Source: Eledone cirrhosa
Taxonomy: Eukaryota
DNA length: 64,000 nt
NCBI GenBank assembly: GCA_964016885.1
Contig: OZ024765.1
Span: forward strand, 8,246,001-8,310,000
Direction of reading: 5' to 3'
In this document: in pieces, positions 29,690 to 55,550 of the stretch
Position numbering within the stretch: the stretch's first letter is position 1
How the letters are laid out: each line of letters opens with the position of its first letter
Program-made: the position numbers and the translations under genes
The notes under the pieces: generated by a model
Databases searched by the model: none
The model's input: only the letters and a program-made list of their open reading frames with translations
Told to the model about the DNA's origin: nothing

Positions 29690-30060
29690 ACTGGCCTTCA
29701 TAATTGTTTCTACGTTTGGCACAAGGCCAGCAATTACCCAGTACATTACTGGTACTTTATTTTATCGACCCCCGTAAGGATGAAAGGAAAAGTTAACCTC
29801 GGTGGGGATTTGAACTCAGACCGTAAAGGGACGTAACTATGTTGGAAAGCAGGGCACTGGACCCTCTACCGAAACTGCCACTTTCGCCTTCATAATAATG
29901 GTTTTTGATTTAGACACACAAGGCAACAATTTTAGGAGTGGGGAAACTCGTTTAAATCAACCCCAGTGCATTACTGGTACTCTATTTTATCGACCCCGTA
30001 AGGATGAAAGGCAAAGTTAACCTCGGCGGGATTTTGAACTCAGAACGTAAAAGGCTGTAA
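29690..30060 (-). mobile_element. Two Meta-domain (OR-like) SINE copies
   Basis: Reverse complement of the gcctttcatccttacggggtcgataaaataaagtaccag core; same family as 56763. Confidence 0.8.
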
Positions 30061-30079
30061 CAAGAGAGAAAGAACATAC

Positions 30080-30209
30080 CTGGTGGCAAAAACGTGTCCG
30101 AGTGTATCTCTAACGTGTACAATGTCAAAGGAACCTGGATGTCTGTCCCTGTGTGTTATTACACCAACACGACCGATGTTGTGACCACCCGTGATCATAC
30201 AGAGATTGC
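30080..30209 (-). CDS. RPS4: 40S ribosomal protein S4, exon 6
   Basis: (G)[42 protein letters not shown](R); ag acceptor and gtatgt donor. Confidence 0.97.
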
Positions 30210-30274
30210 CTGAAAAGAAAATATAACACACTTTAAACACAGAAATCAATATTATTGTTATATATACACACTGA

Positions 30275-34811: not shown

Positions 34812-34909
34812 CTTTGCTTCATCACCTTTAATACGGTGCACAATAAACCTTCCCTTTGCATCATATATCAAACGGAAATATTCATCAGTCTTCTCAATGG
34901 TGATGACAT
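34812..34909 (-). CDS. RPS4: 40S ribosomal protein S4, exon 4
   Basis: (D)[32 protein letters not shown]; 98 nt; ag acceptor and gtaagt donor. Confidence 0.97.
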
Positions 34910-35009
34910 CTACAATGATATATAACATAGATATACACACACAATTAAGCATTTAAGGCCCCAATTTGTCATTAACGGCCATGGTTTTTAACCAGGAAAG
35001 TCCCCCTCC

Positions 35010-35300
35010 GAGGCAGAAGTCCAGGCAAGGTTGTTTGTGGAAGAGCAGCAGTATACCAACCCATGTATACCAGCCTACCCTCTCCACACCACCGATATTG
35101 TCCAAGGGTAAGGTAATGACATTAACAGCTTAGTACCAGTGTTGTCACAACATATATATACTGTGTATATACTATTTATGATGTTCAGAGAAAAGTCAAT
35201 GGCGAACACAGCTTGAAATCAGTTACATTGCAACTCATATCTACAGCTGAGTTAACTGGAGCAACATAAAATAAAATGTCTTGCTCAAGGACACAATGCA
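35010..35300 (+). mobile_element. Degenerate OK-type cephalopod SINE fragments
   Basis: aggcaaggttgtttgtggaag...ccctctccacaccaccgat and ttgctcaaggacacaatgc motifs. Confidence 0.5.
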
Positions 35301-35392
35301 TGTTCTGTGTAAGTCATGGTCATCAGACCTGGCTTGTCTCACAACAGGGCAACTCGTCAAAACTCACGCTATTGAGAAAACTGGACATTAAA

Positions 35393-35606
<214 letters not shown>

Positions 35607-35724
35607 ATACATACATCAACACAGGAGCAAGAATTACAGAGTCATTCTACTTAGAGTAATATGAAAAGATCAAGGACCCTAACAGCTGAGCCCCAGCCGT
35701 TTCGACATCTGTCGGGGTCCTGAA

Positions 35725-36486
35725 TCTTTTCGTATTACCCACTTTAGTATCGAGTACTCTTTTCGTATTACCCACTTTAGTATCGAGTACTCTTTTCGTA
35801 TTACCCACTTTAGTATCGAGTACTCTTTTCGTATTACCCACTTTAGTATCGAGTACTCTTTTCGTATTACCCACTTTAGTATCGAGTACTCTTTTCGTAT
35901 TACCCACTTTAGTATCGAGTACTCTTTTCGTATTACCCACTTTAGTATCGAGTACTCTTTTCATATTACCCACTTTAGTATCGAGTACTCTTTTCGTATT
36001 ACCCACTTTAGTATCGAGTACTCTTTTCATATTACCCACTTTAGTATCGAGTACTCTTTTCATATTACCCACTTTAGTATCGAGTACTCTTTTCATATTA
36101 CCCACTTTAGTATCGAATACTCTTTTCGTATTACCCACTTTAGTATCGAGTACTCTTTTCGTATTACCCACTTTAGTATCGAATACTCTTTTCATATTAC
36201 CCACTTTAGTATCGAGTACTCTTTTCGTATTACCCACTTTAGTATCGAATACTCTTTTCGTATTACCCACTTTAGTATCGAGTACTCTTTTCATATTACC
36301 CACTTTAGTATCGAGTACTCTTTTCGTATTACCCACTTTAGTATCGAGTACTCTTTTCGTATTACCCACTTTAGTATCGAGTACTCTTTTCATATTACCC
36401 ACTTTAGTATCGAGTACTCTTTTCATATTACCCACTTTAGTATCGAGTACTCTTTTCATATTACCCACTTTAGTATCGAGTACTCT
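35725..36486. repeat. 33 bp tandem array (~23 copies) inside the hairpin-ended element
   Basis: Unit ctcttttcgtattacccactttagtatcgagta; flanks are homologous to 3077-3220 and 53457-53567. Confidence 0.92.
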
Positions 36487-36749
36487 GGTGGGTTATGGCC
36501 CACCTGGTATCTTACCACACCTTCTCTGATATATACATATAGACAATATGATTAGAAACCCCTAAATTGGTATATAGATACAAAACTTTAACACAAACAA
36601 GATAACTCCTGTGGTAACAGTAACCAACAATTAGAATATACTTAGTTTCAACCCTTGCTGACTGGGCTGCCAGATTATTTGGGGACACAAACAAAATACA
36701 CATTTTTTTTTGCGACACCCTGTGAGGGAATATAAAAGCAATGTTTAAA

Positions 36750-36881
36750 AGATGTACTAATACTTGGTAATACTACAAGACTATGAGGAGTACAAGTAGT
36801 GACCGAGTAAAAGATTTATTATTGGCAAAATGTAGACCAACATGTCGGTGATTACAACATGTTGCCTTCGAATTATGCCGT
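36750..36881 (-). ncRNA. H/ACA snoRNA, SNORA16/snR46-like, diverged copy 1
   Basis: Hairpin, H box ATAATA, hairpin, ACAtct; sense to the RPS4 host; 5' pocket TCGAAG. Confidence 0.72.
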
Positions 36882-37034
36882 GTAGAAACATGTAAATATT
36901 GAACCCTTCATGTCATGTACCACACATAATCACCACATTAACAAGACATTCTTGAAGTCATCATAATCATTGTCTTTTAATGACTATATATGGATATACC
37001 TGTGTTGATCCCATGTACCCCCTCCCCACACTTT

Positions 37035-37820
37035 AACATTTACATTACTCTATATACACTATTGTATTTTCACAGTAAAGGCTTTACCTCACATAACATT
37101 TACATTACTCTATATATACTATTGTATTTTCACAGTAAAGGCTTTACCTCACATAACATTTACATTACTCTATATATACTATTGTATTTTCACAGTAAAG
37201 GCTTTACCTCACATAATATCTCATAACATTTACATTTCTCTATATATACTATTGTATTGTCACAGTAAAGGCTTTACCTCACATATTTACATTACTCTAT
37301 ATATACTATTGTATTTTCATGGTAAAAGCTTTGCCTCACATAACAATTACATTACTCTATATATACTATTGTATTTTCACAGTAAAGGCTTTACCTCACA
37401 TAACATTTACATTACTCTATATATACTATTGTATTTTCACAGTAAAGGCTTTACCTCACATAACATTTACATTACTCTATATATACTATTGTATTTTCAC
37501 AGTAAAGGCTTTACCTCACATAACATTTACATTTCTCTATATATACTATTTTATTTTCACAGTAAAGGCTTTACCTCACATAATATTTACATTACTCTAT
37601 ATATACTATTGTATTTTCATGGTAAAAGCTTTGCCTCACATAACAATTACATTACTCTATATATACTATTGTATTTTCACAGTAAAGGCTTTACCTCATA
37701 ACATTTACATTACTCTATATATACTAATGTATTTTCATGGTAAAGGCTTTACCTCACATAACAATTACATTACTCTATATATACTATTGTATTTTCATGG
37801 TAAAGGCTTTACCTCACATA
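37035..37820 (+). repeat. ~60 bp MITE-derived tandem array
   Basis: Same unit family as 6485-7330. Confidence 0.9.
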
Positions 37821-38173
37821 TGAAATCTATAAGATTTTGATAATTATTTTGAGAACAATACGTTATCAGTATGAGCAACCAGTTTATAACATGTTTGAAC
37901 AGGAAGGTGAGAGAATTCTGGCCAGATGCTGCCACTCTACTTCAGTATTGAGTACTCAGCCTCAATACTGTGCCCTCAGATGGGCTTTTTAGTTTTAGGA
38001 TGGTTAGAATTTTTTAATTTAATACCTGTATGTATAACTTTTCAATTCCTATTACTTGCACCAAGCTAACAGATATGTAAAATTGGGGGTTTGCTGTGTA
38101 TTCTAAACCCGACTTTGCACACACACATATATATATCAAGATCCCCATCCCTAAACCAGAACTAGTCTCTAAG

Positions 38174-38300
38174 TGATGTCCTCTTACTTGGTGATACTAC
38201 AAGACATAGGGGACCAGTAGTGACCGTGTAAAAGATTTAATGTTGGCACATAATGACCAACTGGTCAGTAATTGGAACAGATGGCTTCGATGTATGCCAG
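38174..38300 (-). ncRNA. H/ACA snoRNA, SNORA16/snR46-like, copy 2
   Basis: ggcata-CATCGAAG-stem-TCA-ttatgtgcc, H box ACATTA, second hairpin, ACAtca; pocket pairs with 28S UGA-[U]C-CUUCGAUG. Confidence 0.8.
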
Positions 38301-39578
38301 AGTCTTATCAAACTCTTGTGGGAGAGAAATAAAGTTAGGGTACTTCGATGGAAGGGATATTTACCAGAGTCTTATATATTTGTTGGAGAGAAATAAAGCT
38401 AGGATACTTTGATGGAAGGGATATTTACCAGAGTCTTATATATTTGTTGGAGAGAAATAAAGCTAGGATACTTCGATGGAAGGGATATTTACCAGTCTTA
38501 TATAACATTTGTTGGAGAGAAATAAAGCTAGGATACTTCGATGGAAGGGATATTTACCAGTCTTATATAACATTTGTTGGAGAGAAATAAAGCTAGGATA
38601 CTTCGATGGAAGGGATATTTACCAGTCTTATATAACATTTGTTGGAGAGAAATAAAGCTAGGATACTTCGATGGAAGGGATATTTACCAGTCTTATATAA
38701 CATTTGTTGGAGAGAAATAAAGCTAGGATACTTTGATGGAAGGGATATTTACCAGAGTCTTATATAACATTTGTTGGAGAGAAATAAAGCTAGGATACTT
38801 CGATGGAAGGGATATTTACCAGTCTTATATAACATTTGTTGGAGAGAAATAAAGCTAGGATACTTCGATGGAAGGGATATTTACCAGTCTTATATAACAT
38901 TTGTTGGAGAGAAATAAAGCTAGGATAGTTCGATGGAAGGGATATTTACCAGTCTTATATAACATTTGTTGGAGAGAAATAAACCTAGGATACTTCGATG
39001 GAAGGGATATTTACCAGAGTCTTATATAACATTTGTTGGAGAGAAATAAAGCTAGGATACTTCGATGGAAGGGATATTTACCAGAGTCTTATATAACATT
39101 TGTTGGAGAGAAATAAAGCTAGGATACTTCGATGGAAGGGATATTTACCAGAGTCTTATATAACATTTGTTGGAGAGAAATAAAGCTAGGATACTTCGAT
39201 GGAAGGGATATTTACCAGAGTCTTATATAACATTTGTTGGAGAGAAATAAAGCTAGGATACTTCGATGGAAGGGATATTTACCAGAGTCTTATATAACAT
39301 TTGTTGGAGAGAAATAAAGCTAGGATACTTCGATGGAAGGGATATTTACCAGTCTTATATAACATTTGTTGGAGAGAAATAAAGCTAGGATACTTCGATG
39401 GAAGGGATATTTACCAGTCTTATAAAACATTTGTTGGAGAGAAATAAAGCTAGGATACTTCGATGGAAGGGATATTTACCAGAGTCTTATAAAACATTTG
39501 TTGGAGAGAAATAAAGCTAGGGTACTTTGATGGAAGGGATATTTACCAGAGTCTTATAACATTTGTTGGAGAGAAATG
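38301..39578. repeat. 65-67 bp minisatellite (~19 copies)
   Basis: Unit gagagaaataaagctaggatacttcgatggaagggatatttaccag(ag)tcttatataacatttgttg. Confidence 0.92.
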
Positions 39579-40087
39579 AAGCAAGTATGAATGAGTGGAA
39601 AGGAAAAACTGATTATCAGGAATGAAATATAGCAAGAGAGAGGAGGCTGCACTTGTATAGACATGTGATGTGTTGGTTTTAAAATTGTCAAGAAATCCCA
39701 GTGGAGGAAGACCAAGATAGGGAGGTGTGACTGCGCTATTATAGTTTGGATGAAGAACCGCCAAGAGTTCCCGGTGGAAGGAAGCTGCAGTAGAGGAAGA
39801 CCAGGGCAGTAATCAGAGAAAGTTAGACACATTACTAAGTCCCTACAAAAATTATTTGAAAATCACAAGCAGCGCCTTTCATTAGAAATATGGTAAGATG
39901 GCTAAATCTTAAACATACCATCCCAGAAAGAAAACAGAATGGACTTCAATTTTTAATCTGATGCAGTCAGAGCTGTTCTCTACTTTTCAAGAGTGTCTTG
40001 CTAATGCGACTTCATGTGGTATAGGACTTCAAGAGTTTAAACACTCGACCGCTACTCTGAAGAGAACAAATGTTGGGTAAGACTTAC

Positions 40088-40170
40088 CCAAGAAACCTGC
40101 AGAGTAGGTGGGGTCTGTTCTCACATGTTCATCAACTTTTATAAATCCCTGCTTCACTTTATCAGAAGTG
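40088..40170 (-). pseudogene. Degenerate partial duplicate of RPS4 exon 3 with intact gtaagt donor
   Basis: VKQGFIKVDEHVRTDPTYSAGFL versus [23 protein letters not shown]; the adjacent intron is also duplicated; no acceptor. Confidence 0.88.
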
Positions 40171-40295
40171 ATGTCCTCTTACTTGGTGATACTACAGAAC
40201 ATAGGGTACCAGTAGTGACCGTGTAAAAGATTTAATGTTGGCATATCATGACCAACTGGTCAGTAATTGGAACAGATGGCTTCGATGTATGCCAG
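40169..40295 (-). ncRNA. H/ACA snoRNA, SNORA16/snR46-like, copy 3
   Basis: Near-identical to copy 2; boxes and pocket intact. Confidence 0.8.
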
Positions 40296-53719: not shown

Positions 53720-54315
53720 TATAGCATATATATATATAGCATATATATATATATATAGCATATATATATATAGCATATATATAGCATATATATATATAGC
53801 ATATATATAGCATATATATATATAGCATATATATATATAGCATATATATATATAGCATATATATATATATATAGCATATATATAGCATATATATATATAT
53901 ATAGCATATATATATATATAGCATATATATATATATATAGCATATATATATATATAGCATATATATATATATAGCATATATATATATATAGCATATATAT
54001 ATATATAGCATATATATATATATAGCATATATATATATATAGCATATATATATATATAGCATATATATATATATAGCATATATATATATACCATATATAT
54101 ATAGCATATATATATATAGCATATATATATATACCATATATATATATAGCATATATATATATATATATATATAGCATATATATATATATATAGCATATAT
54201 ATATATATCATATATATAGAGCATATATATATATATCATATATATAGAGCATATATATATATATCATATATATAGAGCATATATATATAGCATATCATAT
54301 ATATATATATCATAT
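53570..54315. repeat. ((TA)nGCA) microsatellite
   Basis: Direct inspection. Confidence 0.9.
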
Positions 54316-55550
54316 ATTGATTTCAGCAAGGCCTTTGACAGGGTTGATCATAACATTCTACTGAGAAAGCTGTCCAATATTGGTGTCACTGGAAAGCTGC
54401 TGCAGTGGATCAAGAGCTTCCTGTCAAACAGAACCCAACATGTTGTAGTTGAGGGAGTCAAATCAAGCCCAGCCAAAGTCAGTAGTGGAGTCCCACAAGG
54501 CACTGTGTTGGGCCCACTTCTCTTCATCATCTATATTAATGACATCACTGACATCATCAAACACAGCAACATTAAAATTTTCGCTGATGATTCCAAGCTC
54601 CAAAAGGTCATCAATGGCGTGGATGACCGGATAAGCCTTCAGTCAGACCTACTGGCTGTTACCCAATGGGCAGAAAAGAACAACATGTTACTGAACGAAG
54701 ACAAATTCGAACTGATCCACTTTGGAAAAGAGGATGCTCTGAAACTCCCGTACTCCCTTCCCTCCGGGGAAACTCTCGTGGCATCTAACAACATCAGAGA
54801 CTTGGGAGTAACCGTGGACAGCAACATAAGCTGGACCACGCATATAAGCAGCAAAGTTGACATGGCCCGCAGAATGTGTTCCTGGATCCTCAGAACCTTC
54901 CAGTCGAGAGATTCCCGCACCATTATCCTTCTCTTCTCTACTTTCGCCCGACCACACCTTGAATACTGTTGTCCACTGTGGTCTCCCCACACGAAACAAA
55001 GTATCATGAAACTTGAAGCTCCTCAAAGGGCAATCACGAAAAAGATAGATGGCATGTCAGACCTTGACTACTGGGGTCGATTGGAAAACCTGAAACTTTA
55101 CTCACTCCAACGTCGCCGTGAGCGTTATATTATCTGCATGATGTGGAAAATGTTCCATCATCACTGCCCAAATGATGTTGGCATCGCCTTCAAGATACAC
55201 CCAAGGCTTGGGCCCCGTGCTATCCGTCCCATTCAAAAATCTAAATCGCAACTCATAACAACAATACGGCACAATTATTTCACCTCAATCGGCCCTGCTC
55301 TCTTCAACATCACACCAGGACACGTCAAAACAGAAACTGACCACACAAAATTCAAGAAGTCTTTGGACAAATTCCTCCAAGTAATCCCGGACAAACCACC
55401 CACACCCGGATATGTCTCCGCAAACAGTAATTCTCTTCTCGAATGGGCCATGGTGCCCAAATCCTGAATTGAAAGACTTCGCCAGGTGGTGCTATTAAGT
55501 TAGACATGGCCTGGGCCAATACTGGCCAAAACATTTCAAAGTTATTCAAA
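54316..55550 (+). mobile_element. 5'-truncated CR1-group LINE with open RT C-terminal frame
   Basis: DFSKAFDRVDH, GVPQGTVLGPLLF, FADD, RDLGV, RPHLEYC; stop at 55467. Confidence 0.93.

Follow-up and report, generated by a model that had tools for sequence, protein, structure and literature searches.

In Drosophila, the small nucleolar RNAs (snoRNAs) Psi28S-3327a and b, of the box H/ACA class, form an intronic cluster in RpS4, with Psi28S-3327c alone in another RpS4 intron (PMC11028025 supplement), and pug28S-3327 has been treated as a nucleolar snoRNA (PMC3884663). In one part of the fly table (part 8 of 118, counted by hand), 62 of 80 H/ACA rows and 0 of 12 C/D rows are intronic clusters (PMC11028025 supplement). 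Human 28S pseudouridine (Psi) 4412, assigned to ACA16, corresponds to yeast position 2865, assigned to snR46 (PMC3542256 table). Two snoRNAs have also been described in one Plasmodium intron (PMC2656528), and Xenopus offers examples of duplicated copies that switched target (PMC6984369; see also PMC4383904 and PMC7277114 for background). Here we analysed a 64,000-nucleotide (nt) stretch of Eledone cirrhosa DNA (GenBank assembly GCA_964016885.1, contig OZ024765.1, positions 8,246,001 to 8,310,000 of the forward strand), hereafter the window, whose own positions are used throughout. The genome measures 3.0 Gb. The window carries RPS4 on its minus strand, with three snoRNA copies, c1, c2 and c3, in intron 3. 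An initial annotation, made from the letters alone, had noticed these copies, stated that the Drosophila Psi28S-3327 snoRNAs also lie in RpS4, which the supplement rows confirm (PMC11028025), and proposed that they could give rise to snoRNA-ended long noncoding RNAs (sno-lncRNAs). We consider it likely (probability about 0.7) that the three copies are instead released as separate RNAs of about 127 nt, predicted to guide pseudouridylation of 28S ribosomal RNA (rRNA) at the site of human Psi4412 and yeast Psi2865.

H/ACA snoRNA copies in RPS4 intron 3

Copies c1 (36750..36881), c2 (38174..38300) and c3 (40169..40295), recognized by homology, fold and pairing, are all on the minus strand, sense to RPS4, and inside its intron 3 (34910..42303, minus strand, 7394 nt, as given by the boundaries of exons 3 and 4). 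Alignment and exon mapping bore out the three homologous blocks of the initial annotation: c2 and c3 were identical at 122 of 127 positions, c1 and c2 at 101 of 132, and c1 and c3 at 100 of 132, and none of the five positions at which c2 and c3 differ was located in a box or pocket. The minimum free energy fold of each copy consisted of hairpin, hinge, hairpin and tail. In all three copies, and in a fourth copy, c4, described below, the hinge contained an ANANNA motif and an ACA lay three bases from the proposed 3′ end. The H box was AUAAUA at nt 60 in c1 (ACA at nt 127) and ACAUUA at nt 58 in c3 (ACA at nt 122), and c2 had the same boxes and pockets as c3; the folds and box positions agree with the order of hairpin, ANANNA, hairpin and ACA+3 that had been read from the letters. 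On the minus strand, which is the RNA strand, the folding z-scores were -4.1 for c1, -2.1 for c2 and -2.4 for c3, with 0, 6 and 2 of 200 shuffles, respectively, folding as well, and on the plus strand they were -2.9, -0.8 and -0.3. Across 11 homologues, 13 of 24 pairs were changed on both sides and 92.7% of the cells paired, a level reached by 0 of 500 shuffles, with slid controls giving 27-59%. Boxes, folding scores, covariation and pocket pairing support the proposed H/ACA identity, and on this sequence evidence c1, c2 and c3 are box H/ACA snoRNA genes related to SNORA16, snR46 and Psi28S-3327.

BLAST searches of the same genome gave at least three matches with c2 as query and at least one with c1. 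The fourth copy, c4, at G000:C21:4654438-4654563 (L005:1499-1624, minus strand), was the sole snoRNA copy in its intron, had 82% identity to c2, and carried a full 9+3 pocket. The host gene of c4, read from its translation, we take to be RPL10. It was also noticed that c4 and c1 had 12 identical bases of 3′ flank in common. With a model built from c1-c4 only (R1, filters off), no further copies were found in the window or in the 20 kb around c4.

Homologues elsewhere were sought with R1 and a wider model, R2, in the best 80 of at least 394 metagenome loci encoding RPS4 exon 3, and the Rfam scan was run on 18 of these 80. R1 matched four copies in RPS4 intron 3 of locus L054 and two in intron 3 of locus L025 (E values of 2.5e-12 to 3.2e-8), as well as one copy downstream of the RPS4 stop codon in locus L061 (6.5e-4, a rough value). 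The L061 copy scored 48.7 bits on SNORA16, above the threshold of 35, the L054 copies scored 25-27 bits on the same family, and one L025 copy scored 30.7 bits on snopsi28S-3327, for which the threshold is 70; both families belong to Rfam clan CL00021. The kinship to SNORA16 is supported in this way, with a model from the own copies finding a sequence that passes the SNORA16 threshold, and the homology of the window copies to that family, as judged from these scores, is transitive, through R1 and L061. Complete intron-3 sequences numbered 37, of which 19 were at least 150 nt long, and two of these 19 contained the snoRNA, each in several copies. The link between RPS4 and SNORA16 now reaches beyond flies to further animals.

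The four copies of L054 (L054:4330-7224) were near-identical and all had AUA instead of an ACA box. In L061 (L061:2001-2139), SNORA16 was located about 110 nt past the stop codon of an intronless RPS4 coding sequence; this layout may reflect a spliced transcript continuing into the snoRNA, or another gene arrangement.

Guide pockets and their predicted 28S sites

The ribosomal DNA (rDNA) for the target scans was taken from the same genome, and 28S copies L021 and L014 were used for the 5′-pocket and family scans. The 5′ pocket of c2 and c3, whose right strand begins 13 nt before the H box, formed 9+3 Watson-Crick base pairs (12 bp) with the own-genome 28S around the uridine in UUUGA-U-CCUUCGAUGU. 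For c2, the best 5′-pocket site in about 9.2 kb of own rRNA was this known site, with 2 of 60 Markov shuffles reaching the score, and the family score of all 11 homologues at the 28S target was reached by 0 of 40 shuffles. The target uridine was position 2874 of 3401 in the Rfam large-subunit rRNA (LSU) model, and its sequence context matches the one around human Psi4412 (PMC6182160 supplement). The pairing, the LSU model position and the human context all support the 28S target that had been proposed for these copies, human Psi4412 and yeast Psi2865. The proposed pocket, CAUCGAAG/UCA, was found in c2 and c3 but not in c1, whose strands, UUCGAAG/UCU, form 6+2 pairs in place of 9+3. Both L025 copies likewise had a shorter, 6-bp left arm of the 5′ pocket.

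The rRNA genes of this genome were very long, about 2.9 kb for 18S (L019:5433-8310) and about 6.2-6.3 kb for 28S (L015:3125-9458), and rDNA-like copies were spread over at least 10 contigs, some of them rearranged or mutated (L013, L014, L021 and L022).

Examination of the second pocket gave a tentative lead: the unassigned guide of human 28S Psi4502, in the peptidyl transferase centre, may be the 3′ pocket of the SNORA16 family, for which the tables consulted give no target. Position 4502 is presumably 4532 in the newer numbering. The left strand of this pocket, ACGGUC, was kept in 9 of the 11 homologues, c1 and L061 each differing by one base, and the Rfam consensus sequences of SNORA16 and of snopsi28S-3327 both have GACGGUC. 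In the own rRNA (9369 nt with 2144 uridines, the intact 28S copy being used), only one U-N-GACCGU site was found, lying exactly 90 nt beyond the first target, at the position of human Psi4502. The left arm had 5-8 bases paired in ten homologues, among them L061 with 6 pairs, of which one was G-U. By eye, the vertebrate and fly consensus would give a clean 3-bp right arm (AAC). In the human map, m3U4500-U4501-Psi4502 is followed by A-GACCGUC, and the site is 100% modified (PMC6182160). As of 2021 this position was without an assigned guide, SNORA71 having failed in a yeast test, and the part of that source dealing with it leaves SNORA16 unmentioned (PMC8522698). No assignment of SNORA16 to 4502 was found in the relevant parts of the literature searched (PMC6984369, PMC8351944, PMC9941101 and PMC13507652), a search outside which databases and subscription papers lay.

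Several observations argue against this lead. In the own copies the right arm was weak, with one pair and a mismatch opposite the human m3U position; up to four more pairs would need a bulged A, and the arm starts 16 nt before the ACA. In a scan that scored contiguous pairing only, an 18S site outranked this one, which came fourth; the scan used a mutated 28S copy, L021 and L014 carrying a C-to-T change in the Psi4502 context, where 9 of 11 rDNA loci are intact. The single-copy 3′-pocket scan was at chance (30 of 60 shuffles). In addition, when SNHG12, which hosts SNORA16A, was knocked down, Psi2495 and Psi4412 were the only 28S positions significantly lowered (PMC13507652). If the assignment is true, a single snoRNA would be responsible, across animals, for two pseudouridines of the large-subunit core; whether human Psi4502, which is fully modified, is guided by the conserved second pocket is now testable.

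Two other candidate targets of the 3′ pocket were rejected: 1) a 28S site with 3+9 bp and a spacing of 12, which by eye falls in a variable region, and 2) the 18S site topping the contiguous-pairing family scan (2 of 40 shuffles), which by eye is also in a variable region and pairs with the guides of other species better than with the own copies.

Duplication units, satellites and host gene

Alignment revealed that c2 and c3 belong to two duplication units. Unit A (40166..42399, minus strand) consists of the 3′ part of exon 3, the donor, unique intron sequence, a 67-bp satellite and c3, and unit B (38171..40171, minus strand) of a pseudo-exon, a copy of the donor, a copy of the unique intron, the 67-bp satellite and c2; by BLAST and pairwise alignment, the unique parts of the two units were identical at 351 of 410 (33 gaps) and 99 of 104 positions. 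The pseudo-exon (40088..40171, minus strand), recognized by alignment to exon 3 and the intron start, duplicates the 3′ part of exon 3; it lacks 12 nt and has no stop codon and no acceptor of its own. The aligned region was identical to exon 3 and the intron start at 194 of 225 positions. An intact donor, GTAAGT, was located at 40087, directly after the pseudo-exon and 81 nt behind c3. The hexamer TCACTT was present at the breakpoint, both in exon 3 and at the snoRNA 3′ end; being common to both sides, it suggests that c2 and c3 arose by a microhomology-mediated tandem duplication of 2 kb. The first copy, c1, was 74-77% identical to the others, and its flanks gave no alignment to those of c2 above shuffle level; judged by this divergence, c1 is older than the c2/c3 pair. 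By this account, an old local duplication would have set the c2 lineage apart from c1, and the two TCACTT hexamers, of exon 3 and of the snoRNA 3′ end, would later have bounded a 2-kb duplication that gave rise to c3 and the pseudo-exon; the spacers would be satellite-filled by-products of duplication. Cluster growth can thus be read at this locus, where one duplication with a 6-nt common breakpoint appears to have copied a snoRNA, half an exon and a donor.

An assembly artefact is unlikely to account for units A and B, which differ by indels and about 5-7% substitutions. Contigs from three sequencing runs of one sample, which may be the assembly's own, matched both 3′ flanks perfectly (40048-40195 and 38080-38200), extending just 30 letters into the part common to the two units, below the bar of 31. 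An older remnant of exon 3 upstream of c1 was rejected: a 58-nt BLAST match had an E value of 0.002, and the local alignment score was 26, compared with a shuffle maximum of 39.

If the duplicated donor were used, a 222-nt cassette exon containing c3 and two stops would result, splitting the intron and coupling assembly of the small nucleolar ribonucleoprotein (snoRNP) to decay of RPS4 mRNA. The intact donor at 40087 fits this, as does a pyrimidine-rich AG 15 nt upstream of c3, with 12 pyrimidines of 14, the true acceptors of exons 3-5 having 10, 8 and 12; the exon would be in frame with its two stop codons, and SNORD86 in NOP56 provides a precedent (PMC10557570). However, there are 17 AGs within 260 nt, so that one good candidate acceptor is expected anyway, and the introns of L054 and L025 showed no exon copy of this kind. 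The donor can be explained as a recent accident of duplication, and its use would leave c2 and c1 unseparated. We give very little credence to such an exon.

The 67-bp satellite, found by Tandem Repeats Finder, alignment and counts, forms two blocks flanking the pseudo-exon and c3 (38297..41766). Its unit aligned with the snoRNA 5′ flank and the first 16 nt of the snoRNA, and as read from this alignment it is an amplified, altered copy of that region. On the RNA strand, the guide 8-mer CATCGAAG was present in 15 copies in the c3-c2 spacer and 15 upstream of c3, the other 59.7 kb counted on this strand holding 1 copy; amplification of the snoRNA's own 5′ flank accounts for these repeats. In the own-genome search, 20 of 21 among the matches listed fell at the RPS4 locus. 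The satellite is, by these matches, almost confined to this locus, where it places 30 copies of a 28S-complementary 8-mer on the transcribed strand. A second satellite, of 60 bp (37034..37820), was found by tandem-repeat and alignment searches; it makes up 61% of the c2-c1 spacer, and its family is dispersed in the window. The pseudo-exon with its donor, c4, and the origin of the 67-bp satellite in the snoRNA 5′ flank are additions to the initial annotation.

The host gene was delimited by exon 2 (43897..43974, minus strand; PF08071 match of 45.5 bits and translation), exon 3 (42304..42484, minus strand, 181 nt, donor G/GTAAGT; translation and AG/GT ends) and exon 4 (34812..34909, minus strand; PF00900 match and translation), with exon 5 from 30965 and exon 6 from about 30210. 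Exon 1 and the last coding exon or exons, left of 30000-30210, were not located by motif search. Among the metagenome RPS4 loci, 11 of 46 intron-3 donors started with the unusual GTCTGCA (L031-L033, L036-L042 and L055), and GTTTGCA was found in two further loci, L044 and L046; these may represent a conserved weak donor and regulated RPS4 splicing, or the loci may be close kin. The window also contains open frames at 54220-55464 (plus strand), 11425-11862 (plus strand) and 10867-11418 (minus strand) that resemble a long interspersed nuclear element (LINE), and which we take to be fragments of LINE reverse transcriptase.

Proposed processing of the cluster and comparison with known systems

Release of c1, c2 and c3 as separate snoRNAs would involve 1) transcription of the copies with RPS4, followed by assembly of the dyskerin ribonucleoprotein (RNP), 2) splicing and debranching of RPS4 intron 3, and 3) a cut or a start of decay in the unprotected spacers, with exonucleolytic trimming up to each RNP. 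Fly H/ACA clusters, according to Huang et al. in 2005, are reportedly cut into single snoRNAs.

The following points weigh against this reading. Release as monomers is a prediction, and no description of the cutting of animal intronic H/ACA clusters was found in the literature searched; two snoRNAs per mammalian intron can yield sno-lncRNAs (PMC11028025, PMC10557570). The Rfam scan of the whole window gave 0 hits at the gathering threshold, and SNORA16 and snopsi28S-3327 were absent at E values up to 10 from region 36500-40500, from c2 alone and from c1 alone, where weak unrelated rows appeared (among them SNORA72 and SNORA30, with 20.7 and 12.6 bits). A hit to either family at the Rfam threshold was likewise absent for c4; since no copy reaches the gathering threshold, c1-c4 are homologues and not formal Rfam members. 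The check by cmscan against these two families, which had been suggested with the initial annotation, therefore gave no direct hit, and only the homologue L061 passed SNORA16. R2 found no match in 17 of the 19 complete RPS4 intron-3 sequences of at least 150 nt, indicating absence or divergence. The covariation rests on about four lineages, with the structure derived from the same alignment. The identity of c2 and c3 is 96%, against 95% in one 104-nt stretch of unique flank; the copies, being barely closer than their flanks, give no sign of selection on both since the duplication. Finally, the best 5′-pocket site of c1 was at chance level, its score being reached by 38 of 60 shuffles.

The weakened pocket of c1 and a c2/c3 divergence close to that of the flanks would also be expected if only one intron copy, or the lone c4 with its full 9+3 pocket, were the working guide and the rest duplication debris, with c1 decaying or retargeting and c3 a recent neutral duplicate. 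Yet c1 keeps both boxes, the strongest fold (z of -4.1) and 74-77% identity, although its flanks and those of c2 cannot be aligned above shuffle level; the five c2/c3 differences spare every box and pocket, and the shorter 6-bp left arm is shared by both L025 copies. We regard a single working copy as quite improbable.

The release of separate snoRNAs has also to be weighed against the sno-lncRNA proposal, in which trimming of the debranched intron would proceed from its ends only and yield stable RNAs, 1.55, 2.1 or 3.5 kb long and capped by snoRNAs, with 15 repeats of a 28S-complementary 8-mer in the c3-c2 spacer. The sizes had been predicted correctly, the snoRNA-to-snoRNA spans being 1551, 2122 and 3546 nt by coordinates. 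The three copies are in one intron and on one strand with all boxes intact, and in mammals the mechanism is established, with SLERT as an example that has H/ACA ends (PMC11028025). The spacers are long, one of them contains the guide 8-mer repeats, and three of the four folded 300-nt spacer windows were without unusual structure marking a cut site (z of +1.5, -1.4 and -1.2, compared with -2.9 for the 60-bp satellite, all against mononucleotide shuffles). On the other hand, the multi-copy layout is frequent in Drosophila and is found again in L054 and L025, where the spacers are unrelated, the window spacers are 61-67% satellite, the 8-mer repeats are accounted for by the amplified snoRNA 5′ flank, and an intact splice donor is located inside the c3-c2 spacer. 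The spacers in the own genome, L054 and L025 ranged from 94 to 1868 nt and had no similarity to one another by BLAST at an E value of 1e-3, the only exception being an 84-nt stretch duplicated locally within L054. Most known sno-lncRNAs are species-specific (PMC11028025).

Because the layout is usual in Drosophila, and recurs in the same intron of two other animals with spacers that share no sequence, it does not serve as a pointer to sno-lncRNAs in invertebrates, as the initial annotation had taken it, and the locus appears ordinary. As judged from these sequences, the data fit a guide RNA gene that was duplicated locally more than once, its spacers being neutral. The sno-lncRNA reasoning is sound for mammals (SLERT and the Prader-Willi syndrome (PWS) sno-lncRNAs), but has, in our analysis, no positive support at the RPS4 locus. 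It is unlikely that an invertebrate H/ACA sno-lncRNA arises from this RPS4 intron with a spacer repeating an rRNA-complementary 8-mer 15 times. The locus raises the question of how animals cut several H/ACA snoRNAs from one intron, and its kilobase spacers should make processing intermediates easy to see.

Comparison with described systems places the cluster as follows. Drosophila Psi28S-3327 (RF00544, CL00021) has the same host gene, its a and b copies share one intron as c1-c3 do, and the RF00544 consensus has the pocket strands UCGAA, UCA and GACGGUC of the window copies. The window copies, however, gave no hit to that family even at an E value of 10. Their spacers are 1.3-1.9 kb and satellite-filled; the likeness to the fly cluster refers to the host gene and to the sharing of one intron. 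Vertebrate SNORA16A/B (ACA16, RF00190) and yeast snR46 have the same target, 28S Psi4412 or yeast 2865, and knockdown of SNHG12 lowers Psi4412 (PMC13507652). However, the vertebrate host is SNHG12, whereas RPS4 and RPL10 are the hosts here, and the right strand of the 3′ pocket is AAC in the Rfam SNORA16 consensus and AUCACC in the window copies. The sno-lncRNAs (SLERT, with SNORA5A and SNORA5C ends, and those of PWS) resemble the locus in having at least two same-strand snoRNAs in one intron with a long spacer, but their definition requires that a stable RNA be detected and that its spacer have a function, such an RNA being hypothetical at the RPS4 locus. In addition, SLERT arises by exon skipping and is human-specific (PMC11028025). 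The RPS4 locus is an ordinary snoRNA cluster of the SNORA16 type and of a recurrent intronic kind.

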